Virus record (IMG/VR): IMGVR_UViG_2534682094_000013
Reading direction: 5' to 3' (one strand)
Length of the DNA stretch: 14,710 bases
Origin: a virus
Lineage: Duplodnaviria > Heunggongvirae > Uroviricota > Caudoviricetes
Under the pieces are notes generated by a model that saw only the letters and a list, made by a program, of their open reading frames with translations, ran no database searches and was not told the origin of the DNA. The translations under genes and the position numbers were made by a program. Numbering within the stretch: position 1 is the stretch's first letter; each line of letters starts with the position of its first letter. Of the stretch, positions 1 through 14,710 are shown piece after piece.

Positions 1-2
1 GG

Positions 3-410
3 CATGTGAAAAATGAACGCGTTAACCGTTCAGCAAGCTGGCAGTATATCGGTGCAGGTGATGATCGCATCGTTCTTTCTGGTGTGCTTTATCCTGAAAT
101 TACTGGCGGCGAAGTGTCGCTGTCGCTGCTGACCACGCAGGCGTATACCGGACGCCCCTGGCCTCTGATTGATGGCGTCGGGCAGATTTACGGCATGTAT
201 GTCCTGACCGAAACGAGTACGACCCGCTCTGAGTTTGATCGCTACGGTAAGGCGAAAAAGATAGAATTTTCACTAACCCTTGAACGCTGTGATGAGGATT
301 TGCGGGAACGCCTGCAATCCTCATCATTCAGCGATATGCTGTCCGGCTTCAAAGATAAGGTGACATCATCTCTTAACAGCGCGGCCAGTTCAGTTAAAGG
401 GCTGTTCTGA
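3..410 (+). CDS. gpU-like phage tail protein, 5'-partial (frame open to window start)
   Basis: ORF 6..410 translation has P2 gpU-family motifs (VLYPEITGG...GRPWPLIDGVGQIYGMYVL...EFSLTLERCDE). The frame is open from position 3, so the N-terminus lies outside the window. Family assignment is from memory. Confidence 0.6.
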   Translation, partial: HVKNERVNRSASWQYIGAGDDRIVLSGVLYPEITGGEVSLSLLTTQAYTGRPWPLIDGVGQIYGMYVLTETSTTRSEFDRYGKAKKIEFSLTLERCDEDLRERLQSSSFSDMLSGFKDKVTSSLNSAASSVKGLF

Positions 411-419
411 TTAACGCAA

Positions 420-445
420 AACCGCTAATGGTCAGATTAGCGGTT
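420..445. terminator. Hairpin between convergent gpU-like gene and G; possible bidirectional terminator
   Basis: Perfect 10-bp inverted repeat AACCGCTAAT (420-429) / ATTAGCGGTT (436-445) with 6-nt loop. Followed by CTTTCT on the + strand and by TTTTGCGTT on the - strand. Confidence 0.5.
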
Positions 446-531
446 CTTTCTGAAAGTGTTTCTCTGGAGCTGATAAAAACGTATTCCTCCTGAGAAGATT
501 AAAATTTCTTATCAGGGAGCAGGAGAATAGC

Positions 532-942
532 CTACGCCTCCGGCAGTTCAGGCCAGATGACATCCGGTGCGGTGCTGGTATCTGTTGCCGTCACCGCGTC
601 GATATAATCCAGCACAACGTTAAGTCGGGTAGTTTCTTCTTGCGTCAGTTTGCGCCCGGCCTGCAGCTTTAACTGAATCACGCTGATATTGACCATTGCT
701 GCGTCTATCAGCGACTGTTTTTTCTGTTCAGCGTCAGCTACCAGTTCATCATGAGAACGTTCCGGAGTGGGCGGCGCAGTAAATCCCCCGTCTGAATACG
801 CCCAGCCGATTCCGGGCTGCTCACTGATATCAGAAATATTAATGAGCTGTAGATTATCCGGCACAGTGAATTCAGCCTCGCCATCCCAGGCAATTACATT
901 CACAACCATCCCATTTTCAATAACTGCATATGACGCATTCAT
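532..942 (-). CDS. Tail fibre assembly protein (gpG/Tfa-like)
   Basis: Track ORF 532..966. Start is taken at the ATG at 942..940, which overlaps the TAA stop of H (TAATG). Translation MNASYAVIENGMVVNVIAWDG... resembles phage tail fibre assembly proteins and sits immediately downstream of the fibre gene. Confidence 0.8.
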   Translation of the reverse strand: MNASYAVIENGMVVNVIAWDGEAEFTVPDNLQLINISDISEQPGIGWAYSDGGFTAPPTPERSHDELVADAEQKKQSLIDAAMVNISVIQLKLQAGRKLTQEETTRLNVVLDYIDAVTATDTSTAPDVIWPELPEA

Positions 943-2843
943 TATGCAAACTCCTCGATAATACAAATCCCTGCAGCGCCTTTCCCGCCCGTCATACTGG
1001 CTCCGCTATAACCAGCATCGTATGCACCACCACCGCCTGAACCATATGCCTTACCGCTAACACCACCGCCAGCGCCTGCGCGTCCACCGCCGCCCCAGTG
1101 CGATGTTCCGCCTTCACCGCTGACGCTGATATTCCCGGACTGACCGTCGCCTCCATTTCCACCAGTGATGTTGATACCGCCAGTACTTGGCACACCGCCG
1201 TTACCACCGTTCGTGTTTGTGACTCCTACTTTCCCGCCGCCTTCACCGCCAGGGGCTATTACCGTTCCGAACGAGCTATCACCGCCCTTGAGGCCGTTCG
1301 TCGCACCAACACCGCCGCCCCCACCTGCGCCGATAGTGACAGGATAACTATCCTTCGTCAGGATCAGCGTGACAATTGCTGTTCCCCCAGCCCCACCGCC
1401 AGCACCGAAAAACGTTTCGTTATTGGATGTAGCCTGGCAGCCGCCCCCACCGCCACCGCCGCCCGTTATTGTGACCCTGATTCGTTTTGTTCCTGGCGTC
1501 GGGGTGTACGTACCTGATGACGTGAAAATTCGAGTGTTTACAAGGCGTCCAACATATCCGTTTGAATCGCTCAGGCCAAGGTCAGCAGTGGTAGGTTTAA
1601 TATGTGAACTGTAAATTACATAGACCGCTCCATCTGTCAGGCCTGTCGGTTTATTCGCTGTATAAGTTGGTGATGTATGAATCGTTACGCTGGCGTTACT
1701 GGTATAATCCCACTGGATATTTACACCCGTGGCGTAACCACCTATTTCAACATAAACATCATAGGTATCACCGGATGTATTCACCCATGCAAAATTAGTA
1801 AATCCAACCGATGTCCGTCGCCATAACGCACCAGTAAGACCTTTTGGATTCCCATTTCCCGCACGAAGAACAAGTTCAGATATACCAGCCTGCATAGGGG
1901 AGTTAACATTATATCCAGAACCACCAATCAGGCTTATGTAAACTACGGAACTTGCCTGTGGCATGGTTACAGTTGCCAGCTTGAACCATCCTGCACCACC
2001 AATAAAAGACATGGTTGTTGAATTTGTTGCACCAATATTGCGCAGGAATAATCTTTTATCAGGAATATCCGCACCGTTCTGATCTTTCTGAAGACGTTTC
2101 TCAGCATTGTCATAGGCAGACTTCACCGCTTTCGGTGTTGCGGCCAGCGTTTCAGAAGTGCTATTGGTGGCGCTACTGAGCTGGACAAGACCTTTTCGCG
2201 CTGTGGTCGCGTCCTGTGCGGTATATTTCCCGTTAGCAAGGTCATATGCTGTCTTTACCGCCTTTGGCGTTGCCGCAAGCGTTTCAGAATCGCTGTTGGT
2301 TGCGCTGCTTAACTGAGTAAAACCTTTTGCGGTCAGCGATGCATCCGGGTGTCGTCGTGACTGTTCGTGTTCTGAGATTTTGTCATCCACATATTTACGG
2401 GTCGCCAGTACCACCGACGGGTCGATTTTCAGCGTGATGGCTTCGGTATTCGAGACAGCCAGAATCATGCGGATAGTCTGGGTACGACCACTGCCTTCCT
2501 GCAACTGCGGTTTGTACGTTTCCGGGCAATTCGCCACCGCAATGAGTACGCCTTCATCATCATAAAGCCCAATCTCACGGATCCAGAATCCTCCCTCGTT
2601 TTCAGGGATAATTTGTTCCGCAATAATCTGGCTCTGATTGTTAGGGTCAACACTCAGAAGATTCAGCGGTGCAATGCGTTTCTGGTTAATCAGTTTTGTT
2701 TGTGCAGGGTCTGGTGTTGGTAACACACCATTTGCATCACCAACGGCCATTTGCGTCAGATTCAGCTTACTGCCGAGCATCGTCGCGTTAGCCAGTCGTG
2801 CCGCGCCCTGATTAGTCAGAATGGCGTAGTATTTCACTGTCAT
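942..2843 (-). CDS. Tail fibre protein gpH (P2-type N-terminal domain, glycine-rich C-terminal domain)
   Basis: 633-aa intact ORF. The N-terminal third matches P2 gpH as I recall it (GGFWIREIGLYDDEGVLIAVAN, EHEQSRRHPDASLTAKGFTQLSSATNSTSETLAATPKAVK). The C-terminal roughly 200 aa are Gly-rich, including an octa-glycine run. The ATG at 2843 overlaps the stop of I. Confidence 0.9.
   Translation of the reverse strand: MTVKYYAILTNQGAARLANATMLGSKLNLTQMAVGDANGVLPTPDPAQTKLINQKRIAPLNLLSVDPNNQSQIIAEQIIPENEGGFWIREIGLYDDEGVLIAVANCPETYKPQLQEGSGRTQTIRMILAVSNTEAITLKIDPSVVLATRKYVDDKISEHEQSRRHPDASLTAKGFTQLSSATNSDSETLAATPKAVKTAYDLANGKYTAQDATTARKGLVQLSSATNSTSETLAATPKAVKSAYDNAEKRLQKDQNGADIPDKRLFLRNIGATNSTTMSFIGGAGWFKLATVTMPQASSVVYISLIGGSGYNVNSPMQAGISELVLRAGNGNPKGLTGALWRRTSVGFTNFAWVNTSGDTYDVYVEIGGYATGVNIQWDYTSNASVTIHTSPTYTANKPTGLTDGAVYVIYSSHIKPTTADLGLSDSNGYVGRLVNTRIFTSSGTYTPTPGTKRIRVTITGGGGGGGGCQATSNNETFFGAGGGAGGTAIVTLILTKDSYPVTIGAGGGGGVGATNGLKGGDSSFGTVIAPGGEGGGKVGVTNTNGGNGGVPSTGGINITGGNGGDGQSGNISVSGEGGTSHWGGGGRAGAGGGVSGKAYGSGGGGAYDAGYSGASMTGGKGAAGICIIEEFA
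2109..2318 (-). repeat. Tandem 44-codon repeat inside H (two copies of the ...QLSSATNS(D/T)SETLAATPKAVK(T/S)AYD... motif)
   Basis: Protein residues 176-201 and 220-245 are near-identical, and the underlying DNA copies (2241..2318 and 2109..2186) are clearly related. Confidence 0.6.
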
Positions 2844-3403
2844 GCGTTTACTCTCAGATTATCAATTAAATGAATGACCGGGGCAGGGAAATAATCCCCT
2901 TCGACAATAATGGACTCCGGGGTGTAGGGATAAACCGTCAGGGCATCGCCGTGATAGCATCCCGTACCAACGAAAATATTTCCGTTCACACTCAGGCTGA
3001 TCGCCAGCCCTGTCAGATGGCGACTTACTGGTTTTGCATCCGCAATAAGGCGCTCAAGTTCCTGATACATTTCATCTGTGATGCCCTGATCAAGTACTCC
3101 GACAACAATGCGAAATGTTCCCGGCTCCTCGTTGAGTTGCCACCACTCCTTTACTTCAATCAGGTAGCCGAGAGGCTCCACGGCTCTTCGCAGTGCGCTG
3201 ATGGTCCCTTTGTGTCGGTGTATCAGCCATGCATCACGAATAACCTGTCGCTTTGTCTCTTCCGGCCAGTTGCGATCCCAGCGGTCAACGGAAAAGCCCA
3301 GGCGAGATAAGGCAGCAGATGCACCGGGCAGGTGTCCGGCGACCACAGCGTGTTGAGGTCTACCGGAATGTCTGTAATGCGTGTTCCGACGGCTTCGGCA
3401 CAA
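2840..3403 (-). CDS. Baseplate assembly protein gpI (largest frame; true N-terminus in another frame starting near 3447)
   Basis: Translation SVDRWDRNWPEETKRQVIRDAWLIHRHKGTISALRRAVEPLGYLI... matches P2 gpI. The gpI N-terminus (MSNSLLPP...NTLWSPDTCPVHLLPYLAWAF) is in the 3223..3480 ORF frame, so a 1-nt frameshift lies near 3290-3310. Confidence 0.75.
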   Translation of the reverse strand: MCRSRRNTHYRHSGRPQHAVVAGHLPGASAALSRLGFSVDRWDRNWPEETKRQVIRDAWLIHRHKGTISALRRAVEPLGYLIEVKEWWQLNEEPGTFRIVVGVLDQGITDEMYQELERLIADAKPVSRHLTGLAISLSVNGNIFVGTGCYHGDALTVYPYTPESIIVEGDYFPAPVIHLIDNLRVNA

Positions 3404-3439
3404 CGCATGAAATTGCTGGCTGATGGTGGTAACAACGAA

Positions 3440-4331
3440 TTACTCATTGCGTCCACCTTCGCTGATGGTGAATGACTCACAGCGCGCCGCCTGTATGTCG
3501 CTGATGGCCATATTCTGTGTGGGTTCGATTATCTCCACGCGTTGCACACCGTGCACATGCAGTGCGGCAGCAATGGCGGACAACGCCACGTCCTGACCGA
3601 TAAGTCCCTGCTCAGCCAGCCACTTCCTGAACGACGATTCCGCCGCAGCCAGAATAGGTTCGGATTCCGGGCCGGGGTAAAAGTACAGTTTTGCATTCAG
3701 CCGCCATGTCACGATTCTGGCGCTCTGTACGGTCAGGCGGTCGGCCACCGGGCGGGTATCCTCTGCATTCAGAACGGCGCGAACGGTATTAAGCAACGCC
3801 TCCGTTGCTGTGCCGTCGCCCTCAGTGGACAGGATGGAAACCGTCACATTTGCCGGAGACGGGCTGATAGCCCGCGCATCACGCACCAGACCGCTGGCGC
3901 TGCGGGCAAAATACTCGTATGCACCTGACGGGCCAGCAACACTCAGGCCGTCGTACGCCCGTGCGCCCGCAGTCTCAGCGAGGTGTCGCTTCCATCACCG
4001 CGTCGGTGGTATCCGTTGCCGGAGTGATAACCAGGCGCTTTGTGTTCATATTGCCTGCGAGGTTGTCCAGGTCTGTCCCGGCGCTGTGGCTTAACATCAG
4101 GCGCGTGCCCCTCATTACCCGCTGGCGTAACAGCATTTCACGAAACGACATGGTTTGAGCGATAACGTTAAGGGGTTCCGATTCCAGCTCCAGCGCGGCG
4201 GAAACGGCTTCACGCTGTTCGGCGGGATAGGACGCAATCATCATGGCTTTTGTGTCAGCCAGAATTGCTTCAAAGTCAGGCTCCGCGATGATGGCGGGTT
4301 CCGGTAACTGGGAAAGGTCAACGGCGGGCAT
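3440..4331 (-). pseudogene. Baseplate assembly protein gpJ, split by at least two frameshifts
   Basis: N-terminal fragment 3975..4331 (MPAVDLSQLPEPAIIAEPDFEAILAD...) and C-terminal fragment 3440..3886 (...RPVADRLTVQSARIVTWRLNAKLYFYPGPESEPI...) both match P2 gpJ. The middle lies in a third frame, and the 892-nt span is not a multiple of 3. Confidence 0.8.
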
Positions 4332-4399
4332 GATTTACTCCCTCAGCGTGATGGTTAACTCAACATTCTGCATGGTCTGCATGACAGTGCCCGACAGTG

Positions 4400-4684
4400 T
4401 CACCCCGGCGGGCCTCCCGCTTTCCAGACAACGTCGATGGCATCCAGGGCAATGCGGGGTTCCCATCGTGTCAGCGCAATCACGGCAGCACTCATGCATT
4501 GCAGACGCGTGGTGTTATTCATGGGTTCGTCAATCAAATCAGGCACAAGGCTGCCATATTCCCGTCGCATAACCCGGCTGGCCAGCGGGGTGGTCAGGAT
4601 GTCCCTGACTGACTGTTTCAGGTGCTCCATATCATTCAGGTTTCCCGTTCCGTCCGGGTTCATTCCTGTGTAGCGGGTTGTCAC
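4400..4684 (-). CDS. Baseplate protein gpW (gp25-like); C-terminus truncated by a frameshift, true stop at 4335..4337
   Basis: MTTRYTGMNPDG...SVRDILTTPLASRVMRREYGSLVPDLID matches gpW. The ORF ends at the C4 run 4403..4406; adding one C restores ...GVTLSGTVMQTMQNVELTITLRE ending 6 nt before the J start. Confidence 0.75.
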   Translation of the reverse strand: MTTRYTGMNPDGTGNLNDMEHLKQSVRDILTTPLASRVMRREYGSLVPDLIDEPMNNTTRLQCMSAAVIALTRWEPRIALDAIDVVWKAGGPPG

Positions 4685-5277
4685 TGCGGGCCTCCTGTCG
4701 AATCGCTGCCACCTTTAACACCACCGTGTTTATGCGTATGCACTGTGATGCCGTTTGAGGTGAAATCGCCGCCGCTGTGCGTGATATTGCCGCTCATCTT
4801 TCCTCCTTTTGTGACGTCAAGCGTCGCTGTTCTCAGAAGGTTTGTGCATTCCACGACGGGCGTGTCCAGTGTCACGCTGACGGATGCCTGTAAAGTGGCC
4901 GTTTTCATGCCGCTGGCGCTCAGTGCGCCTGCGTCCGCGTCGTAGCGGAACACCGCGCCATCCGGCGCGCTGATCACGATTTCTTTCAGGCTTTTGCCGG
5001 GGGCCGGACTGGCATCACTCCACAGGCTGCCAATTATCATGGCGGTTTCCGGGTTGCCGCCAATGCAGGCAATTACCACCTGTTCGCCTGGTGATGGCGG
5101 CAGCCACACATTGAAGGCTCCCGCGCGCGTGGTGTTCCAGCGCAACCAGCCTGTTTCCAGTTCGCCGCTGCGAACGCGCACGCACCAGGATTCCTCATCA
5201 ACTTCAGAGATGATCCCGGTCGGATGATGTTGCTCAGCAGTCGCATGAGTTCTGCGCTCACCGTACAGCCTCCGCAA
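4681..5277 (-). CDS. Baseplate spike gpV; N-terminus appears frameshifted (probable true start GTG at 5261)
   Basis: C-terminal 170 aa match gpV (...GNITHSGGDFTSNGITVHTHKHGG). The gpV-like N-terminus (MSAELMRLLSNII...) is in the 5073..5261 frame and joins the main frame near 5215. Confidence 0.75.
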   Translation of the reverse strand: MRRLYGERRTHATAEQHHPTGIISEVDEESWCVRVRSGELETGWLRWNTTRAGAFNVWLPPSPGEQVVIACIGGNPETAMIIGSLWSDASPAPGKSLKEIVISAPDGAVFRYDADAGALSASGMKTATLQASVSVTLDTPVVECTNLLRTATLDVTKGGKMSGNITHSGGDFTSNGITVHTHKHGGVKGGSDSTGGPQ

Positions 5278-5887
5278 TCCGGCCCAGCACCGTGTTATAA
5301 ATCAGGCGCTCATCTGCCTGGCTGATACCCAACAGCTCACGTACCGGGTAATCGGTGAAAATGCCCGGCGCAACCTGATCGCGCTCACCGAACTGATGAA
5401 CGCGGCAATACGTGCGGCCACGCCGCTGTAACCCACCGTCACACCGGAAGCATCTGCACGGGCTTTCAGGTAGCGGGCGGTGCGCAGTTTTACGAACATG
5501 GGGACGCGCTTTGTGCTGTCCTGGTTGATGCGCCGGGTGCGTATTTCCAGAAAACGGTCGATGTCATCCCGGTAAAACGTGCGGATATTGTTTTTATCCT
5601 CATCCCACCCGGTAATGGTTCGCCCGTATTTCCCCGTGTCGTGATGCCAGTTTTTCAGCGTGCGTGCTTCGTTATTCCAGATAAAGCGAATGCGTCCTGT
5701 ATCCGGGTTACGCGGCGTCTGCGTGGTGTCCAGCGTCCCGTCCGGCGCTTTCTGTGACCGGATACGGCCTGCTGGGCGCGGCGTAAATCCTGTGCCAGCT
5801 TTCTGGCGATGTTATTGATGGCCTGCTGATTCAGGCTGTCGCGGATGCCTCAAAGGTTTCATCCACGCGGGTGAATGCCTTATCCAT
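5258..5887 (-). pseudogene. Tail completion / virion morphogenesis protein gpS-like, multiple frameshifts
   Basis: ATG at 5887 overlaps the R stop (ATGGATAA). By hand translation, gpS-like segments (MDKAFTRVDETF / ...IRDSLNQQAINNIARKLAQDLRRAQQ / ...MFVKLRTARYLKARADASGVTVGYSG... / ...LIYNTVLGRIAEAVR*) lie in different frames. No intact ORF covers the span. Confidence 0.65.
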
Positions 5888-6342
5888 CGCTTTCACCCCA
5901 CGTCACATCCTGGAATACATGCGACCAGTCGCCTTCGGAAGAGGCAGGCGGGGTTTTGGCTCGGCAGGTGTTCTGCCTGCGGTGTGCCCTGACTGCTGCG
6001 CTGATGCGAACGCGTTCCCGCAGGGGGAGCGTAAACAGGAGATCGGCGCTGTCATCGTCATTGATAACGGCGGAGAATTTGATGTCCTGATTACGCTCGG
6101 TTGAGCAACAACTGTGGCTGATTTTCGGATAACCACGCCAGCAGCGGCAGCGTGAGGTCGTCCAGCTCCCCGGCGTAATCCATGACAAACATCACCATCT
6201 GATAGCGGTAAACAAACGAGGGCGTTTCTCCGGTCGTTTCAATGTTGCCGCTCTCCACGAAAATGGTGAATTTTTCCGGGTTAGCCTGACACCATCGGCA
6301 TGAACGGGTCATGGCTTCACGCAGGGAATCAGTTTTCAGCAT
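5880..6342 (-). pseudogene. Tail completion protein gpR, one frameshift
   Basis: N-terminal fragment 6091..6342 (MLKTDSLREAMTRS...LPLLAWLSENQPQLLL) matches gpR. It continues in the 5880..6188 frame (ERNQDIKFSAVINDDDSADLLFTLPLRE...) after a 1-nt deletion near 6105-6112. Confidence 0.75.
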
Positions 6343-6619
6343 GGTTGTTGTCCTCGTTGTTCAGTCGTTGCAGCCTGCGCTGTTCCAGTAATTCAATGGC
6401 CCGTTTATCAGCGTTACAGGTTTCCAGTGCATCCAGAAGGCGGTCGCCCCATATACCGAGATTTCCCCATGTGGGAGTGTCAGGGAAGGGGGGAGGCGTT
6501 ACCGGTATGGTCAGCGTCTGCGGTATAAGCCGGACTGACGGCGCTGGCAGTGGCGCGTTCTGCGTGCCTGCGCAACCTGTCAGTAAAACGAGCGTCAGGC
6601 AAAGCGTGGGCGCATTCAT
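6329..6619 (-). CDS. lysC: Outer-membrane spanin lipoprotein (LysC / Rz1-like)
   Basis: Start taken at the ATG at 6619. Signal peptide with lipobox (LLTGC), Pro-rich mature region. Begins embedded out of frame in lysB and extends past its end. Confidence 0.7.
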   Translation of the reverse strand: MNAPTLCLTLVLLTGCAGTQNAPLPAPSVRLIPQTLTIPVTPPPFPDTPTWGNLGIWGDRLLDALETCNADKRAIELLEQRRLQRLNNEDNNHAEN

Positions 6620-6887
6620 CTTTTGCAATATCGTTGCGTAGCTGTTCACGTCTGGCCTCTCCGTCCTGATTTCTCTGTTGATTTTCCACGCGGAGTTGCG
6701 CCAGCACCTGCTGCATATCCTGTACCCCGGTGCTGATGATATTCAGGGTGTCGACGGTACTTTTCAGGGCGCTGGCCTGCGCTTCGTTTCTGGCGTTCTC
6801 CCGGCCCAGCGACCACGACAGACGCATGGATGTTCCCCATGCGGCAATCAGAAGGAAAGCGACACCCAGCGTGGGCCAGAGCTTCAT
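6480..6887 (-). CDS. lysB: Inner-membrane spanin (LysB / Rz-like)
   Basis: Start taken at the ATG at 6887 (MKLWPTLGVAFLLIAAWG...), giving an N-terminal TMD followed by a charged, probably coiled-coil region. The track ORF extends upstream to 7031 into the endolysin gene. Confidence 0.7.
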   Translation of the reverse strand: MKLWPTLGVAFLLIAAWGTSMRLSWSLGRENARNEAQASALKSTVDTLNIISTGVQDMQQVLAQLRVENQQRNQDGEARREQLRNDIAKDECAHALPDARFTDRLRRHAERATASAVSPAYTADADHTGNASPLP

Positions 6888-7276
6888 GCCGGATAGGCTC
6901 CGTGTGGTAACTGAAAATGCGGTCCGTCTTTCAGGGTCTTCCAGTCGCCGCCCCATTCCACCGGAATATTCAGTTCCCGGCTGGCCTGTCTGAATGCTGC
7001 TGCGATTTTTTCGTACAGCGGCCATTCCCATGACACCTGGCTGCCGATATAAGCCACAACATCCACGGCATGTCCCGTAAGGTGGCGGCTGTTCATGGTC
7101 TGGCTCTTACCCGTGGCCACAAGTTGCTTCTGGCGGTAACGACTGCGCAACCCTTCGGTGATACCAAAATCCACTTCCGAAATTTCCAGTGCCCGTCGGG
7201 TCACTTTCACCAGATCAGGATTTACGCCCTGCAAATTCTTTTCGCTCCGGCTGCTGAATTTAAATGTGTTGCTCAT
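6884..7276 (-). CDS. Endolysin, peptidase M15-like (L-alanyl-D-glutamate peptidase type)
   Basis: 130-aa intact ORF with SRHLTGHAVDVV and a distal His, as in M15 endolysins. Sits between holin and spanins; start overlaps holin stop. Confidence 0.65.
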   Translation of the reverse strand: MSNTFKFSSRSEKNLQGVNPDLVKVTRRALEISEVDFGITEGLRSRYRQKQLVATGKSQTMNSRHLTGHAVDVVAYIGSQVSWEWPLYEKIAAAFRQASRELNIPVEWGGDWKTLKDGPHFQLPHGAYPA

Positions 7277-7491
7277 TCGTCCTTCTCCTTCACCCTGCGA
7301 TTAAAGGCTGCAATAACCTTGTCGCGTGCTTTCTCTGCGCCCATAAAACCGATTGATGCGCCGATAAACGTCACGGCATCTTCAGGAAAACCGAAGAAGC
7401 GCAACGACCCGGCCACGGCCATGGCAAGAACGCCGCACGCCAGCGATCCCGTTACGGTCTGAACCAGTGTTCGTCCGTCATAAAGACTCAT
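7273..7491 (-). CDS. Holin (class II-like, two TMDs)
   Basis: 72 aa with two hydrophobic segments (TVTGSLACGVLAMAVAGSL, AVTFIGASIGFMGA) and a charged C-terminus (EKARDKVIAAFNRRVKEKDE), immediately upstream of the endolysin. Confidence 0.6.
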   Translation of the reverse strand: MSLYDGRTLVQTVTGSLACGVLAMAVAGSLRFFGFPEDAVTFIGASIGFMGAEKARDKVIAAFNRRVKEKDE

Positions 7492-7595
7492 CAGCGCGGA
7501 AATGCTGACCGCCGCGCCTCTGCATACACCGTTGGCAGGTGGTCAAAGAGCCACGCAATAACCTGCTCTGTGATCCCTGTTTGAATGGTGCTCAC
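7491..7595 (-). CDS. Hypothetical 34-aa ORF between X and holin (GTG start, GGAG RBS); possible holin partner or detached holin N-terminus
   Basis: GTG at 7595 lies 6 nt downstream of GGAG. Its TGA stop overlaps the holin ATG (TGATG). Not in the supplied ORF track (under 60 aa). Confidence 0.3.
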   Translation of the reverse strand: MSTIQTGITEQVIAWLFDHLPTVYAEARRSAFPR

Positions 7596-7597
7596 TG

Positions 7598-7798
7598 CTA
7601 CTCCCCCCACAACTGAATCATTTCTCGTTTCTTCTTCTCCGGCTCCGGCATCTCCACTTCCTGCCCGGCGTCCAGAAATACCTGCTGACAGAGTCCGGGG
7701 TTGGCATCCAGCACCTTTTCGGTGACGCCCTGCGTCGTGCCGTAGTACCGGAAACAGAGCGAATCCACGGTGTCGCCTTCCAGTGCCTTCACTTTCAT
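7598..7798 (-). CDS. Tail protein X (gpX, LysM-like)
   Basis: MKVKALEGDTVDSLCFRYYGTTQGVTEKVLDANPGL matches P2 gpX. The track starts at GTG 7804; the ATG at 7798 fits the P2 N-terminus better. Confidence 0.75.
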   Translation of the reverse strand: MKVKALEGDTVDSLCFRYYGTTQGVTEKVLDANPGLCQQVFLDAGQEVEMPEPEKKKREMIQLWGE

Positions 7799-7836
7799 CA
7801 GCACAACTCCGCAAAATTCGCGGGCGGCACAGAATG

Positions 7837-8287
7837 TCAGAGATGGCCCAGCTCACATCCGCCACAAATCCGATGTCTGTATATCCAGGCGTCCGCCCGG
7901 CGGTCGCCCTTGTCCGTTGTGTCTGCATCACGATAACGCTCCAGAATCAGGGCGCGCGTGGCGGTATAAACAGCATTGCGCCAGTGCCAGAGATTGACGC
8001 TTTCTCCGTTAATTACGGGTGCCGGAACATCGGCCAGCGTCTGATGGCCAGCGCCTGCTGTTCCTGCTGCCAGCTTCCAGCTCGCGGGTAACGTGTGCCA
8101 CGCCCCGGTGGCTATGCAGCAGGCGGGAGGTGGTCACCGCCCGGCAGTCGTACCGCCAGACGCAGTCCGCAGCACAATATCCGGCCAGAATGCACCCGCT
8201 GAAATCGGGTATCCCATCATCGGTATCGGTGATGTCGTCCTCTGCGGGTCCGGGGTTGGTTCTGGCAACCATACTCATGGGGTTCAC
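7837..8287 (-). pseudogene. Head completion protein gpL-like, frameshifted
   Basis: The position between M and X, and a Cys-containing N-terminal fragment (8009..8287: ...DFSGCILAGYCAADCVWRYDC...), suggest gpL. A second frame (...LWHWRNAVYTATRALILERYRDADTTDKGD...ICGGCELGHL*) ends at 7837. The exact junction is unresolved. Confidence 0.5.
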
Positions 8288-8372
8288 TCCTGAAAAAATC
8301 GGGCGGTGGGTGCGCGGTGTAAACGGTCACGGAGTCAAACCGGAACACCGCGCACGCCGCCCGCTGACGGGG

Positions 8373-9153
8373 TCAGTCGTTAACCGCGCTTCGCCTTCTG
8401 CGTCGCGGTGGTTTTTCGTGTTGCAGGCTTCCGCGTTGTCTTTTTACTTTTGCTGCTTTCGTCCTGCGCCTGCTGTGCGCTGGCGTCTTCTGGTCGGCTG
8501 CGGAATCGGCTTTTTTCAGGGCGCGGGAAAGGGTTGCAATCTCGCGTTTCACACCTGCGTTCGGGTTCAGGTGCATGCTTCGCGCAGCAGCTTCAGTGAA
8601 GGCCATGTGTCGCATCTCAGCCACGCGGGCAAAGGCGCACGCTTGCATAATTTGGCGCGACTTCGTCCGGCATGTCCTGGTCGGTGACAATCTCCGGAGG
8701 GTGTCCAGGGTTCGATAAAGGCGGAAAATCCGCGTCGGCATCCGCCCGGCCTGCGTCAGTACCGGTTCAGATTTCTTCGGTCAGACGTGGCAGCAGTACG
8801 GCCAAAGTTATCCGGCATATGAGGTTTGACGGACCACATACGCCCATACGCACGCAGCGGAAGATCGCCCAGTCAATCGCCCACACCATCAGCGTGGCAA
8901 TCACTTCATCCTGCTGCCCGCCGTCAGCCTCCAGCGTTCCCTCAATCCAGCCGGAAAAATCCGGCAACAACTCTTTTTTGATGGCGGCTTTCGCGCTTCT
9001 GGCCTGTACGCCCTTAAGCCGGGCCTGTGCCAGACGCAGACGATACAGCACCTCTTCATGCGCGGTACGCGCGGCGTGGTCCACGCCTTCATTCGCCCGG
9101 CCTGCGCGCTGTGCCATCACGTTCTGCCAGTGTTGCTGTGCAGGAGTAATCAT
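8373..9153 (-). pseudogene. Terminase small (endonuclease) subunit gpM, at least two frameshifts
   Basis: N-terminal fragment 8767..9153 (MITPAQQHWQNVMAQRAG...KKELLPDFSGWIEG...) and C-terminal fragment in 8373..8741 (...HLNPNAGVKREIATLSRALKK... with a basic tail) both match P2 gpM. The middle lies in another frame. Confidence 0.8.
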
Positions 9154-9170
9154 TTGTTCTCTCCGTTACA

Positions 9171-9189
9171 GGCGGGCATGATGCCCGCC
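9171..9189. other. GC-rich hairpin in the N-M intergenic spacer
   Basis: GGCGGGCA-TGA-TGCCCGCC: 8-bp perfect stem with 3-nt loop, between the capsid gene stop (9216) and M start (9153). No U-tract on the transcribed strand. Confidence 0.35.
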
Positions 9190-9215
9190 GTGAGTTGATT
9201 AGCTGTCGGCGAACT

Positions 9216-10250
9216 TCAGACCAGTGACCATGCGCACTTGCCATAGTCTTCAACGACATAAGCGTCATTGATGGACTGGTAGGTGGCGATGCGGTTGTAT
9301 TCCGGCTCGTCTTTCATCAGGCGACGCATTGAGCCTCTCTGCCAGTAAATTGACAGGTTGTTGAATGAGGTGATCAGCATCGTTGCATCCGGGAAGAACG
9401 GCGCAAGGAATACATCCAGCCCGCCAATGGTGCGCGATGACAGGATGAGCTGTCCGGCGAGTAATTCCGCATTGGGATTCTGGCCGCTGATGCTGTTCAG
9501 CACGGGCAGGCGTAGCGAGTTAAACAGGTTGCGCCCCATAATCACCACGAGGTCGTCAGCTTCCTTGTGCCATTCATCCAGCAGGGATGAGCGTGCGTCC
9601 TGTACCAGTGCATCAGCGTTCGCATACTTACCCGCGTGCGCCACGGTGTTGTCCATGTTGCGGGAGGTCAGCGTCACGTCATTCATAACGCGCTCGCTGG
9701 CGTCGGTTCTGATGTGCTCCAGCCAGCCCACGTTAACGTCCTGAAGCAGCTTGTTGGTGCTGAAGTTGGACTCATCCGCGTGAGACGTGCCGTTGAAACC
9801 GATCATGATGCGGTCAAGCGCCACCTGTCGGGCAATCTGTGCGCTGATGCGGGACTGAAAATCAGGGTGTGCCGACCAGGCATCAAGCTTCGGATACGAA
9901 ATAAACGTGTCGTAGTTCACCTGTTCGCACTGGTATTTGCGGTTTTTCAGATCAACCACGTTATTCGGGTTACGGCGTTTTGTGCCGTCATAACTGGTAT
10001 TCGTGCGTGCAATTGGCCCGGTGGTGTCCAGGAGGATTTTTTCGCCTTTCTGGTCGGTCACGCCGATCACGTTAATTCTTTTTGTAAATTCGGTACTTTC
10101 CTTTGAGGCGTTTTCAAAACGCTGCTGTACCGAGGGTTCCACGGTAAATCGCGATACCAGTGCAGATACCGGGATATTGTTAAGCGACGCCTGCTGCGCC
10201 ATATAGCAACCCAGCTTGTTGCGGGTAATATCTGACATCACCAGATTCAT
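9216..10250 (-). CDS. Major capsid protein gpN
   Basis: Intact ORF with strong P2 gpN similarity throughout (FTVEPSV...QKGEKI...NRKYQCEQVNYD...LQDVNVGWL...DDLVVIMGR...MLITSFNNLSIYWQ...YVVEDY). Start is taken at ATG 10250 (AAGGAG 8 nt upstream), not the track's 10304. Confidence 0.9.
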   Translation of the reverse strand: MNLVMSDITRNKLGCYMAQQASLNNIPVSALVSRFTVEPSVQQRFENASKESTEFTKRINVIGVTDQKGEKILLDTTGPIARTNTSYDGTKRRNPNNVVDLKNRKYQCEQVNYDTFISYPKLDAWSAHPDFQSRISAQIARQVALDRIMIGFNGTSHADESNFSTNKLLQDVNVGWLEHIRTDASERVMNDVTLTSRNMDNTVAHAGKYANADALVQDARSSLLDEWHKEADDLVVIMGRNLFNSLRLPVLNSISGQNPNAELLAGQLILSSRTIGGLDVFLAPFFPDATMLITSFNNLSIYWQRGSMRRLMKDEPEYNRIATYQSINDAYVVEDYGKCAWSLV

Positions 10251-10272
10251 AAAAATTTGCTCCTTTGTCTTA

Positions 10273-11047
10273 TCAGAAGTCAGCCAGCTGGTCGGAGGCT
10301 GCACCTGTTGCGGTGAACCGGTTCTGCGGATCGCCGTCCTGCGTGCGCAGTTTTTCCTTCAGTGCTGTCAGCTCTGTGGTCAGTGACGTGATTTTCTGGC
10401 GGTCCTGCTGATGGCGGGTTTCCAGCACATTAAAACGGTCGATAATGTCGGCCTGTGACGTTGCGACCCTTCCACGCTTCCTGAATACGGGAGAAACTGG
10501 CGTCATCCGCTTTGCGGCCACGACCAATAATCCCCATACGCGGTTAAACCACTGGGTGCCTTCTTCCTGCGTTGTTCGATTCGATATTCGACTCATGCCG
10601 GAACGCTCCCCTGACGTTGAAGTCATAGCTACGTTGTGTGCCGAAACAGCGTCGTGCCCAGGCTGCGGGGTGTCGGTCATGCCAGCCCGCAGTAGGCCCC
10701 CGTAGGACTGGGTCAGTCATACTGGAATAGATTTTCTTGCCGTCCGCGACAAGCTGCTTCATGCGCTCGGTCGGTTCGATTTCTGCATACAGCGCAGTAC
10801 GTCCGGCCAGCGGACCTTCCGTAATGTCTTCCGTACTCAGTGCGGTGACATCGCCCATTGCGGAAAATTCGCTTGACGGGCATGGCGAGAGATAGTGCTC
10901 AACGTTCACGCGGGCAGCGTAAACATCCGGGTTGAAGTTCTCGGCGGCTTCACGCAGATGTACCGGGCTGATTTCGCGGCCATCAACAGTTGATCCGGAG
11001 ACAGCCACGCGAAACTTTTTGCGGGATGTCTTTTTTTCATTAGCCAT
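10273..11047 (-). pseudogene. Capsid scaffold protein gpO, frameshifted
   Basis: N-terminal fragment in 10544..11080 (MANEKKTSRKKFRVAVSGSTVDGREISPVHLREAAENFNPDVYAARVNVEHY...) and C-terminal fragment in 10273..10680 (...LTTELTALKEKLRTQDGDPQNRF...) match gpO. The centre is out of frame, and the 775-nt span is not a multiple of 3. Confidence 0.8.
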
Positions 11048-11201
11048 AGTTTTTGCCCCTCTGACTGGTTCTTCAGTCATGATGGCAAAGCGTAACAGGC
11101 TGACACAAAGGGCTTTTGTTGTAAGAAAACGGCCAGAACAGGGGGTTAAGGAGAACAGTTTCGCGCGCGGGTAATCTTCCTGTAATTACTCAGGGGGAGC
11201 A
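11048..11201. promoter_or_regulatory. Divergent intergenic region between O (-) and P (+); expected site of the two late promoters
   Basis: 154-bp gap between divergently oriented operons. Contains an imperfect dyad ACAAAGGGCTTTTGT (about 11104..11119) and a strong SD (GGGGGAG) before the P start. In P2 both late promoters here depend on Ogr; no consensus match is claimed. Confidence 0.4.
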
Positions 11202-12940
11202 ATGATTCAGGACGCTTTTGTGCGCCAGCGTGCGCGGCAACTTTACTGGCAGGGTTATCCGCCCGCAGAAATATCACGTCTGATGGGAATAAACCCGAAC
11301 ACGATTTATGCGTGGAAAAAACGCGACCAGTGGGATGAAACGCCACCCGTGCAGCGTGTCACGCAGTCCATCGATGCGCGCCTCATCCAGCTCACTGAAA
11401 AACAGAATAAAACAGGTGGTGACTTCAAGGAAATAGACCTGCTGACCCGGCAGCTTAAAAAACTGCATGATGGCCAGCCGGATGTGATGGCCGCAGGAAA
11501 GAAAGGCCGGGCGAAAAAACTTAAAAATCATTTCACGCCGGAACAGATTGCCGCACTGCGGGAAAAAATCATCAGCAGGCTGGAGTGGCATCAGCGGGGC
11601 TGGTTTGACTCCCTGACACTTTGCAGGGAAGCCGGGATACGTAACAGGATGATCCTGAAATCCCGACAGATTGGGGCGACCTGGTATTTTGCACAGGAAG
11701 CCTGCTGATGGCGCTGCGTGACGATGTGGCGCAACCTTACCAGCGTAACCAGATTTTTTTGTCTGCGTCGCGTCGTCAGGCGTTCCAGTTTAAAAGCATT
11801 ATTCAGAAGGCCGCGGCTGAAGTTGATGTGGAGCTGAAAGGGGGCGATAAAATCATCCTCTCCAACGGCGCAGAGCTGCATTTTCTCGGCACTTCTGCTG
11901 CGTCGGCACAGTCCTATACGGGCAATTTTTATTTTGATGAATTTTTCTGGGTCAGTCGCTTTGCCGAACTGCGCAAGGTGGCTGGCGCTATGGCAACCCT
12001 CAGCGGACTGCGGCGCACCTACTTCTCCACGCCATCCACCGAAACGCACGAGGCTACGCCTACTGGAACGGCGACCGCTGGAACGAGAAAAAGGCCCGCA
12101 TAAACGCCAGCGTTTTTCTGTGGACTGGAAAACGCTGCATAACGGGCTTATCTGCCCTGACCGGACTGGCGGCAAATTGTCACGCTGGAAGATGTGGTTA
12201 ACACGGCTGGAAACACACCAATATCGACGAAATTCGTGATGAAAACACCGAAGACGAGTTCCTCAATCTCTATATGTGTGAGTTTGTCCGCGAAGGGGAA
12301 TCGGCATTTAACCTGAATATCCTGATTGGCTGCGGTGTTGACGGATACGACGACTGGAAAGACTGGAAACCTTTTGCTCCCCGCCCATGGGGAATCGTCC
12401 GGTATGGATTGGGTATGACGCAAACGGCAGCAGTGGCAACGGCGACAGCGGCGCTGTGTCCGTGGTGGTTCCTCCGGCTGTTCCTGGTGGCCGTTTTCGA
12501 ACGGTGGAACGCGACGCGTTCAGGGGCTGGAGTTTGAAGAACAGGCCAGAGTCATTGAAGAGTTCACGTGTCGCTACAACGTGGAACACATCGGCATTGA
12601 TGTGACGGGCGGGAACGGGGAGGCTGTTTATCAGATAGTGAACGTTTTTCCCTGCGCTATTCCGTACACCTTCACGCTGTCATCAAACGGTCGCTGGTAC
12701 TGAAAATGCTGCAAATAATGCGTGCCGGCGTGGGAATACGATCGCGCCGAACGCGAGCTGGTCGCGGCCTTTAACGCCGTGCGTAAGGTGAAAACACCGG
12801 GCGGCTTTATCACTTACGAAACGGACCGCGCGAGGGGGATCAGCCACGGCGACCTTGCGTGGGCAACCATGCTTGCTGTCATTAACGAACCAATTGGCGG
12901 CGAAGGAGAAAACGAGCGTTTCACGGTTATGGAGTTCTGA
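11202..12940 (+). pseudogene. Terminase ATPase (large) subunit gpP, at least five frameshifts
   Basis: Fragments 11202..11708, 11708..12103, 12274..12537, 12387..12605 and 12722..12940 each match consecutive parts of P2 gpP (QLYWQGYPPAEI..., NQIFLSASRRQAFQFK...GNFYFDEFFWV..., MCEFVREGESAFNLNILIGCGVDGYDDWKDWKPFAPRP, GNRPVWIGYDANGSSGNGDS..., ...SHGDLAWATMLAVINEP...). The 1739-nt span is not a multiple of 3. Confidence 0.85.
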
Positions 12941-13983
12941 TGAGCAGAAAAAATAAAAAAGTGCGCATGAGTTCACGCATTGATCTCGCTGATGCGCTCA
13001 GGAAAGAATCGTCGCTCAGTGCATTCACATTTGATGGCCTTATCGCCTGACCGGGCATGACCTGCTGGATAATATGTACTGTGCTGATAACGGGCGGTGG
13101 TATGAAACCCCGGTGGACTGGTACGGTCTGGCAAGAGCTGCCCGGCAAACGTCCTGGCATCAGTCTGCGCTTTACTTTAAGCGCAATGTATTGCTCGGTT
13201 GCTACATCCCGCACCCGCTGCTTTCCCGGCAGGATTTCTCGGCGTGGCGCTGGACTGGTTTGTGTTCGGTAACGCATTCCTTGAGCTTCGGAGCAATATG
13301 CTCGGCGAACCACTTAAATTACGGCACGCACTGGCGAAATACATGCGACGCGGAAGCGATCTTGAATCATGGTGGTATGTGCAGGATGGCAAGGACGCGT
13401 TTCAGTTTCGCCCTGGCAAAGTGTGCCACCTGATGAATCCGGACATTAACCAGGAAATTTACGGCATGCCGGAATATCTTGGCGCATTACTCTCGGCCAG
13501 CCTGTCTCATTCGGCGGACATGTTCAGAAAACTGTATTACGACAATGGATCCCACGCCGGGTGCATCATCTACATCGGTGCAGCGCAGGTAAACCGCGAA
13601 AGCATGGACTCCCTGAAAGAAACGTTACAGGGTGCGCGTGGTGGTGGGCGTTTAAAAACGTGCTCATCCATGCGCCCAACGGGGGCAAAGAGGGGGTGCA
13701 AATTTTGCCGTTCCAGCAGATCACCGCAAAGGATGAGTTCATGAATGTTAAGGCGGCATCCCGTGATGATGTGCTGGCTGCGCACCGCGTTCCGCCGCAA
13801 CTGATGGGGGCGATGCCGGGCGAAAAAAGTGCGTTTGGTGATGTGGAGAAGGCCGCGCGGGTTTACGCAATTAACGAGCTGATGCCCGTCATGGAGGCCA
13901 TGAAGCACATCAATGACTGGCTTGGCGAAGAGGTGATCCGCTTTAACCCTTACGCACTGTTAGACACCCAGCCCACATCCTGA
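12940..13983 (+). pseudogene. Portal protein gpQ, at least three frameshifts
   Basis: ATG at 12940 overlaps the P stop (ATGA). gpQ-like segments lie in frames 12940..13048 (MSRKNKKVRMSS...), 13074..13433 (...NGRWYETPVDWYGLA...YFKRNVLLGCYIPHPLLSRQDFS), 13199..13744 (...DWFVFGNAFLE...NPDINQEIYGMPEYL...YYDNGSHAG...) and 13561..13983 (...KNVLIHAPNGGKEGVQILPF...AAHRVPPQLMG...). Confidence 0.85.
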
Positions 13984-14009
13984 CGCGCTTCGCTTGTCTG
14001 CTGCTTCGC

Positions 14010-14034
14010 CGGGGCATAAAAAATTTATGCCCCG
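14010..14034. other. Perfect hairpin just downstream of the portal gene (possible terminator or protein-binding element)
   Basis: CGGGGCATAAA-AAA-TTTATGCCCCG: 11-bp perfect stem, 27 nt after the Q stop. No flanking T-tract on either strand. Confidence 0.4.
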
Positions 14035-14407
14035 ACTCTCCAGCTCCTGTATCAGTCAGATAATTTCACGACGCTTTCCTGCTTATTGCCATCATCGACA
14101 GTCAGACTCTTACGCAATCCCACCGCGTTGACTGCATGTTCTCGCCGTCTCAGTGCGATTTTGACGGCCTTACCTTTCACCCCATCAAATCAAAAGCCCT
14201 CACGTCTTTTTCACGCTCAGCGTGAGAAATATAGCCATTCTGTTGTGTCGCTGCGACATCGTTCAGGGGATGCTATTTACCCCCTGAAACGCGGGCTGTT
14301 CCCCCGTCACCTGCGCGCAGAAAAAACGCGTTTTTTTGTGCACGCACGGATCCTTGACGGATCCAGCCGCCATGCGGGCCGGAAGGGCAAAAAGTCGTTC
14401 AAAAAAA

Positions 14408-14434
14408 TTGTGCAAATTTGTGCACTATTGTGCA
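14408..14434. repeat. Three direct TTGTGCA repeats phased at exactly 10 bp
   Basis: TTGTGCA at 14408, 14418 and 14428 (aTTGTGCAaat TTGTGCActa TTGTGCAaac), at the point where composition switches to AT-rich. Confidence 0.5.
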
Positions 14435-14557
14435 AACCGAACGGAGTGTTTATTTATAGAAAAATTGAGCCTATGTATACGACGTTGCTTATAAATACAT
14501 CCCTGACTGTTATGTGAAAATATGCAAAGAAAATTACATGCTATGGAGATGAGAGTT

Positions 14558-14597
14558 ATAACGACCTTTTCTACTTATTTGTAAAAGAGGTCGTTAT
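14558..14597 (+). promoter_or_regulatory. Hairpin that would sequester the SD and start codon of the downstream small ORF
   Basis: 5' arm ATAACGACCTTTT (14558..14570) pairs with 3' arm AAGAGGTCGTTAT (14585..14597): 13 bp with one G-U pair, 14-nt loop. The 3' arm contains AAGAGG and the AT of the ATG at 14596. Confidence 0.4.
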
Positions 14598-14691
14598 GTA
14601 TAAAGTTAAATTATTTTTTACTCTTGATATGTGTAAAAAATATAGCTTTGATGTTTATATTTTATTAGAATACATTATTTATCCTCTTTAA
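14596..14691 (+). CDS. Hypothetical 31-aa peptide (MYKVKLFFTLDMCKKYSFDVYILLEYIIYPL)
   Basis: ATG preceded by AAGAGG at 6-nt spacing; 31 codons to TAA at 14689..14691, in the AT-rich terminal segment. Not in the supplied track (under 60 aa). Could be a chance ORF. Confidence 0.3.
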   Translation: MYKVKLFFTLDMCKKYSFDVYILLEYIIYPL

Positions 14692-14710
14692 TGATTTTGT
14701 TATAGTCAAA

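Follow-up and report, generated by a model that had tools for sequence, protein, structure and literature searches.

Phased TTGTGCA repeats beside the cargo hotspot of a P2-like prophage probably form the conserved outer edge of its cos region

The window analysed here is a stretch of 14,710 nucleotides of Caudoviricetes DNA (IMG/VR record IMGVR_UViG_2534682094_000013), near the right-hand end of which the GC-rich phage backbone gives way to AT-rich DNA. Three closely spaced copies of TTGTGCA lie at this junction. An earlier note on the same DNA took them to be the opening of a variable cargo segment, and suggested that they could be bound cooperatively by a regulator or nucleoid protein. The locus thus raises two questions: whether the repeats belong to the cargo or to the phage, and what they are for.

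The window comes from a P88-like (Xuanwuvirus) P2-family E. coli prophage. By megablast, positions 13900–14710 have matches in 1148 records of E. coli and 16 of phages. Sequence past the window end is supplied by NZ_CP082083 (locus L001), a chromosome with 99.1% identity. There the plus-strand genes for the terminase large subunit and the portal are followed by a 690-bp gap, then by a minus-strand gene for a 565-residue ATPase, one for a DNA adenine methylase, and gpA. The ATPase is annotated as an "AAA family ATPase" and gpA as a replication endonuclease.

The quality of the record needs comment. The portal gene in the window is broken up by single-base deletions. Compared with L001, to which it is 96.8% identical, the window has 126 small deletions, 114 of them of 1 bp, and only 3 insertions, all between positions 3015 and 13647. 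The deletions have no particular sequence context, and split the terminase, portal and other open reading frames. This looks like the result of an error-prone long-read assembly, or possibly of a decaying prophage. There are no indels after 13647, and the findings on the repeats and cos are therefore unaffected. In L001 the terminase large-subunit gene (9287–11038) is annotated as a pseudogene with an internal stop, and that prophage may be defective.

The features of the right-hand part of the window are listed here; those marked "no strand" have no orientation assigned.

13561–13983, plus strand: 3′ end of the portal (gpQ-type) gene (portal CDS 11038–12084 of L001, equivalent to window 12937–13983)
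14010–14034, no strand: perfect 11-bp inverted repeat just past the portal gene, at the P2 tQ position and hence a putative tQ equivalent
14295–14313, no strand: predicted cohesive-end (cosN) segment, GCTGTTCCCCCGTCACCTG; the P2 19-nt end, reverse-complemented, aligns with it in register
14336–14342, plus strand: proximal repeat, a T-run and TTGTGCA, the counterpart of TTTTAATGCA, which borders the 55-bp cos core in P2/P4
14343–14400, no strand: semi-conserved spacer, mean pairwise identity 0.50
14401–14407, plus strand: conserved A7 tract directly before the triplet
14408–14434, plus strand: distal repeat array of three TTGTGCA at 10-bp spacing, the last conserved backbone sequence
14435–14437, no strand: homology breakpoint (match ends), the cos-side edge of the cargo hotspot
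14438–14674, no strand: tail of the cargo island, AT-rich (GC about 0.27) and non-coding
14675–14710, minus strand: last 11 codons and stop of the gene for an OLD-like ATPase-Toprim protein (565 residues)

The triplet occupies 14408–14414, 14418–14424 and 14428–14434. The exact 10-bp spacing described in the earlier note is borne out, and the phased 27-nt pattern occurred in 0/200 dinucleotide-preserving shuffles with 3 mismatches permitted. A fourth TTGTGCA, absent from that note, is found at 14336–14342, 72 bp upstream of the triplet. All four copies are on the same strand and are therefore direct repeats. Given the phasing, cooperative binding of a protein on one face of the helix is plausible.

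The drop in GC content that had been placed at about 14395 is only partly what it seemed. GC is 0.55 over 1–13983, 0.62 over 14295–14389, 0.31 over 14390–14434 and 0.26 over 14435–14710, so that the fall from 0.62 to about 0.27 is real, but foreign DNA starts only at 14435–14438. The first 45 AT-rich bases (14390–14434), which comprise the A7 tract and the triplet, are conserved phage backbone.

This boundary is defined by the point at which homology to other genomes ends. In both the phage and the E. coli collections, matches that do not share the cargo stop at query positions 535–538, corresponding to 14434–14437 of the window. Among the 1107 E. coli records with a match to 14280–14560, 60 were sampled in even steps; 59 of these end at 14434–14437, and one has the cargo, 100% identical. 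All matching phage records retain the triplet. Conservation thus ends with the third TTGTGCA, and the inserted DNA starts 0–3 nt later. The AT-rich DNA beyond it is indeed variable cargo, common to only 14–15 of about 1100 matching E. coli genomes. The proposal that the repeats open the cargo segment is contradicted, since they lie within sequence common to 16 phage records and about 1100 E. coli genomes, which diverge only past the third copy. The triplet is the conserved outer edge of the cos region, and not the start of foreign DNA.

The cos region sits between the portal gene and the gpA-proximal variable region. For P2, P4 and 186, cos is described as a conserved core of 55 bp that contains the 19-nt cohesive ends (Ziermann and Calendar 1990, as relayed in PMC5694545 and PMC9594776). 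This core consists of GCGCGCA, the 19 nt, and a further 29 nt; it ends exactly at copy 1 of the repeat, leaving copies 2–4 outside. The window contains a segment homologous to GGCGAGGCGGGGAAAGCAC and flanked by GCGCGC; the CCCCCG core is shared, and intermediate forms are present in other genera.

For comparison, the portal protein was used to gather 52 loci from contigs that represent each species by one genome. Downstream of the portal gene, most enterobacterial genera have TGTGCA at x, x+72, x+82 and x+92. The loci were stacked without gaps by anchoring on the core CCCCCG[TC]C. In this stack the window, 35 loci, P2, 186 and P4 share a single register, and the experimentally known cohesive ends of P2, 186 and P4 align with window 14295–14313. 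Counted base by base on the ungapped stack, 10/19 positions of the cohesive-end block match P2.

Measured from the start of the cohesive end, the TGCA offsets are +44, +116, +126 and +136 in the window lineage, +44, +116, +126 and +138 in P2, and +44, +116, +126 and +139 in both 186 and P4. The motif is TTGTGCA in the window lineage and (A/C)ATGCA in P2, 186 and P4. Across 36 distinct portal-linked loci from about 20 genera, the TGCA core of copies 1 to 4 is kept in 34/36, 33/36, 23/36 and 28/36 respectively. Mean pairwise identity is 0.70 in the cohesive-end block, 0.88 in copy 1, 0.50 in the spacer, 0.76 in the A-tract and triplet, and 0.29 in the next 30 nt. The repeats are present with any cargo and at fixed offsets from the cohesive end in many genera, which contradicts the view that they are a property of the insertion.

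One record conflicts with the predicted position of the cohesive end. NC_049391 (Xuanwuvirus P884B11), which is the only linear record of the lineage, starts and ends at 14389|14390, inside the spacer and about 76 bp from the prediction; this point may be a real terminus or just an arbitrary linearisation. A cohesive end at 14370–14389 was considered on this basis and dropped; the family alignment puts the P2-homologous block at 14295–14313.

Some further features of the region are worth noting. The spacer contains a dyad, CCGC-CAT-GCGG, at 14367–14377, which has 4 bp in the window. A dyad recurs at the spacer centre (columns 14363–14384) in the portal-linked loci L005–L054, 186 and P4 with differing sequences (CCGCC/GGCGG, CGCCA/TGGCG, AGCCC/GGGCT, CTAAG/CTTAG), with stems of up to 8 bp (Brenneria and P4). 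The pattern hints at compensatory change; the dyad is significant in no single locus. At 14312–14346 an inverted repeat with 15-nt arms (87% complementary), TGCGCGCAGAAAAAA and TTTTTTGTGCACGCA, connects copy 1 with the sequence beside the cohesive end; the window and a Salmonella locus (L005) have it, and most other genera do not. A search of Rfam gave one sub-threshold chance match, on the portal-proximal hairpin.

More distant relatives were also compared. The P2 portal is 47% identical to that of the window lineage, and the 186 small terminase 35% identical. In the record of the Pseudomonas phage phiCTX (NC_003278), CTGCR occurs at +45, +117 and +128, and repeats R1–R6 and IHF sites are annotated around cos. 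In Shewanella, Colwellia and Pseudoalteromonas loci, with portals 31–42% identical, simple scans recognised neither the cos core nor phased repeats. Covariation of the terminase with motif type was looked at and set aside, being inseparable from phylogeny. In P2 (33424–33480; 3425–3480 of locus L003) the outermost ATGCA overlaps TTGAAT, which is likely to be the −35 hexamer of the old/tin promoter; in this phage, therefore, the cos region runs right up to the promoter of the cargo.

The P4-like satellites are of particular interest, P2 and P4 being reported to have essentially only cos in common. We gathered 80 P4-like loci via Psu, which gave 67 distinct cos-region slices. Every satellite cos sequence listed has TTTTAATGCA, GCATGCAAA, CCATGCACC and GATGCATG between psu and the cohesive end, the exceptions being L069 and L094, in each of which one core has a single-base change (TACA). 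One satellite has a spacing of 78 bp rather than 72 bp. Satellites in which Psu is only 62–64% identical and the spacer has diverged still keep all four positions. No TTGTGCA-type cos was found among the 80 Psu-linked loci, all the cos sequences listed being of the ATGCA type. The single atypical E. coli match is a divergent P2-like prophage with Doc/Phd cargo.

The arrangement in the satellites separates cos from hotspot. Their repeats lie between psu and cos, with the hotspot on the opposite side, which contradicts the idea that the repeats are tied to the hotspot. The repeats therefore travel with cos, and this argues against a role for them in cargo regulation or as a recombination site. 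Across the satellite loci (L059–L138) the sequences diverge directly outside GCGCGCA, 7 bp from the cohesive end on the side opposite the repeats, and this point gives a base-precise edge for the P4 hotspot.

We therefore have a conserved block in fixed register with the cohesive end, and its function can be proposed from the comparisons above. It is probable, on our reading, that the triplet is the distal end of an extended cos (DNA-packaging) region of about 150 bp, and that the repeats are recognition sites within it. Reading from the portal, a cohesive-end segment at about 14295–14313 would be followed some 22 bp later by the T-run and TTGTGCA at 14336, then by a 65-bp spacer, the A7 tract, and three copies on one helical face at 14408–14434. 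We infer that the four copies are sites for recognition by, or assembly of, the phage terminase (gpM/gpP), possibly aided by bending of the DNA across the spacer. One proximal and three phased distal sites would broadly resemble the R sites of lambda cosB. Their binding partner is more likely to come from the packaging machinery than to be a regulator of the cargo or a nucleoid protein that silences it.

This proposal would also explain the position of the breakpoint. If the repeat block is needed in cis for packaging it would be irreplaceable, and swappable defence cargo would for that reason begin at the first base after the last copy, at 14435–14438. In cosmids, longer P4 cos flanks gave more than 1000-fold better transduction (PMC9594776). 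This is consistent with functional sequence beyond the core; the text of that paper does not give the exact extents of the flanks. Together with the conservation of the whole block in P4-like satellites, it lends indirect support to the idea that the region may suffice in cis for packaging by a helper phage. Several observations weigh against a packaging role. The division between GTGCA and ATGCA follows phylogeny, and is thus by itself no proof of recognition by a phage-encoded protein; in P2 the spacer differs and the last copy is shifted by 2 bp; and one satellite has the 78-bp spacing. The spacer contains no IHF consensus and the copies are all direct, unlike those of lambda cosB, and the ends of NC_049391 do not fall at the predicted cohesive end.

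Several other functions for the repeats have to be weighed. That they are operator-like sites for a regulator, or for a nucleoid-silencing protein of the AT-rich cargo island, is suggested by the exact 10-bp phasing, which suits cooperative binding, and by the overlap of the last P2 ATGCA with the −35 region of the old promoter. However, the repeats are present regardless of cargo. The adjacent cargo gene in the window is transcribed towards them, so that they lie past its 3′ end, and in the satellites they adjoin psu, on the side of cos away from the hotspot. An operator function is largely refuted by these points, and we consider it very improbable. We give equally little credence to the suggestion that the block has no binding function and is a conserved flank used by homologous recombination to swap cargo. 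The breakpoint is sharp and common to hundreds of genomes, which speaks in its favour, but neutral flanks would not hold the motif register across about 20 genera while the spacer drifts to 50% identity, nor would the block be kept in P4-like satellites, where the hotspot is across cos.

Two further alternatives leave the repeats with a function at cos. The copies might be sites for a host architectural protein that bends the cos DNA, with the terminase reading the 55-bp core only. The conserved A-tract and the helical phasing suggest bending, IHF sites are annotated near cos in phiCTX, and IHF acts in lambda cosB (PMC4669245). On the other hand, the IHF consensus WATCAANNNNTTR was not found in 14290–14440 with up to 1 mismatch, and a motif that is GTGCA in P88-like phages and ATGCA in P2, 186 and P4, all of them in E. 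coli, is unexpected for a single host protein; host-directed bending as the main function therefore seems unlikely. A still smaller chance attaches to the possibility that two adjacent copies form a minus-strand hairpin which, with the T7 run, acts as a weak intrinsic terminator and shields cos and the late genes from read-through out of the early operon and the cargo. A scan does flag GTGCA-CAAATT-TGCAC followed by AATTTTTTT at 14425–14410, P4 can form an analogous 5-bp stem followed by TTTT, and Dodd and Egan (1996) are cited as putting a terminator at the other edge of the hotspot. But the stem is just 5 pairs long, folding is no better than chance (z-score −1.13; 24/200 shuffles fold as well), a single terminator-like match against 0.7 expected is no enrichment, and P2 has no T-run there. 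A terminator would also leave unexplained both the third copy and the fixed 72-bp distance to copy 1.

Sites for the late activators (Ogr/B/delta) were also considered and rejected. The B sites of 186 have the form GTTGTG-N..-TCCA, the triplet lacks TGT-N12-ACA/CCA, and the cos copies of P2, 186 and P4 have no TGT.

Beyond the repeats lies the cargo. In P2-like phages the interval containing gpA, cos and the portal gene is a hotspot for defence genes, with old and tin in P2 (Rousset 2022, PMC9122126; Vassallo 2022, PMC9519451). The earlier identification of this position as an old/tin-type hotspot agrees with these reports and with the variable content found here. It is also correct that the cargo gene lies mostly past the window end, with only its last 11 codons and stop inside (14675–14710). 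Extension rightward to the replication gene, on L001, found an OLD-like ATPase-Toprim gene and a D12 methylase gene before gpA, and not ordinary backbone. The island in L001 is about 3 kb long, from just past the repeats to the end of gpA, with a GC content of 0.25–0.40. Other cargo occupies the same slot elsewhere: ParA/ParB-like genes in NC_049391 and Doc/Phd in NZ_CM176349.

The defence-system HMM search that had been suggested gave PADLOC matches for both the ATPase and the methylase. The N-terminus of the ATPase contains Pfam AAA_15 and AAA_21 (ABC-type) above cut-offs. Its best PADLOC matches are HEC-04, PtuA, ATPase-Toprim_I-B (9.9e-16), AriA and GajA, with a best E-value of 8.9e-17. 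No Pfam Toprim domain was found in the protein; in its C-terminal half E350, D412xD414 and E433 are invariant in 32 homologues. The AlphaFold model has a mean pLDDT of 80, and Foldseek matches it over its full length, with probability 1.0, to the retron Eco8 effector, GajA and the Thermus OLD protein 6p74. From the domains, invariant residues and fold matches, the protein is predicted to be an OLD-like ATPase-Toprim nuclease. Its relationship to P2 Old is not close, the similarity found by BLASTP (E = 0.011) being confined to the ATPase motif.

The D12 methylase matches PADLOC PD-Lambda-5_B over its full length (8.7e-122). The cargo is nevertheless not PD-lambda-5, since the methylase alone matches; PD-Lambda-5_A is absent among the 25 best PADLOC matches of the ATPase, and the C-terminal half of the ATPase matches HEC-04 only. 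An OLD-like ATPase-Toprim gene stands beside a D12 methylase gene in E. coli (L001 12776–15336), Enterobacter cancerogenus and the Firmicute Desulfosporosinus, and this adjacency is kept in L001, L139, L140 and L141 though the gene order differs. It suggests that the two genes may form a conserved module resembling a restriction-modification system.

It is worth adding two observations on the tail of the island. An inverted repeat at 14558–14597, 78–117 nt past the ATPase stop, has 17-nt arms (88% complementary) and a 6-nt loop, without a T-run; transcripts of the cargo operon may end at this hairpin. On the plus strand, 14596–14691 is an open reading frame of 31 codons, MYKVKLFFTLDMCKKYSFDVYILLEYIIYPL, preceded at a distance of 6 nt by a Shine-Dalgarno sequence, AAGAGG. 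This frame and the ATPase gene converge, and their 3′ ends overlap by 17 nt.

The reading of this locus as a cargo hotspot is right and already documented, and the cargo is one more OLD-like nuclease and methylase pair in a well-catalogued hotspot. Much of what is described here is known biology. The additional comparative insight is modest, and consists of the conserved register of TGCA cores in P2-like phages, P4-like satellites and phiCTX. It has some practical consequences. The edge of the P2 defence hotspot can be set to the base, with cargo beginning right after the last cos repeat, and this helps the automated extraction of hotspot cargo. For cosmid and phage-particle delivery vectors based on P2 or P4, the comparison suggests that the insert should extend for about 125 bp from the cohesive ends towards psu/old, and not be limited to the 55-bp core. 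The repeats are also testable sites for terminase recognition, and for the specificity of packaging between helper and satellite in Peduoviridae.

A wider hypothesis, which we offer tentatively and with some doubt, is that the P2 family, P4-like satellites and phiCTX share an uncharacterised multipartite packaging signal. This would consist of one proximal and three distal sites with a TGCA core, held in fixed register and extending about 90 bp past the 55-bp core. The flavour of the motif (GTGCA, ATGCA or CTGCR) might set which helper packages which satellite, and the limit of the hotspot would be set by where the signal ends.

It remains to compare the locus with known systems. Like the old/tin hotspot of P2, the cargo lies at the gpA–cos locus, is AT-rich, and encodes an OLD-like ABC ATPase with a Toprim architecture. 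Unlike P2 old, its ATPase gene is transcribed towards cos and not away from it.

The comparison with lambda is instructive. The cosB of lambda has the order R3-I1-R2-R1 and spans about 120 bp (PMC4669245). In both regions several short repeats extend for some 100–120 bp to one side of the nicking site, one copy lying near it and the others past a spacer. They differ in that all four copies in the window are direct, whereas R2 of lambda is inverted. The window has no IHF consensus between the proximal and distal repeats, the two regions do not resemble each other in sequence, and their terminases are unrelated. The end that is packaged first may also differ. The right end of P2 DNA is said to sit at the tail; if it is packaged last, the repeats would lie on the last-packaged end, unlike in lambda cosB. 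Because its copies are direct, the IHF consensus is missing and the proteins are unrelated, the cos of the window does not belong to the lambda cosB class.

The cos of P2, P4 and 186 is much closer. It too lies between the portal gene and the hotspot on the gpA side, with a homologous cohesive-end block, a proximal T-run and TGCA at +44, and distal copies at +116 and +126. The window differs in having TTGTGCA instead of (A/C)ATGCA, and its last copy at +136 instead of +138/139. The attP-cos-ctx region of phiCTX, also from a phage of the P2 family, likewise has repeats across cos, with CTGCR close to the register of the window; it differs in its motif, in extra copies at +54 and +100, in a cohesive end of 21 nt, and in the adjacent attP.
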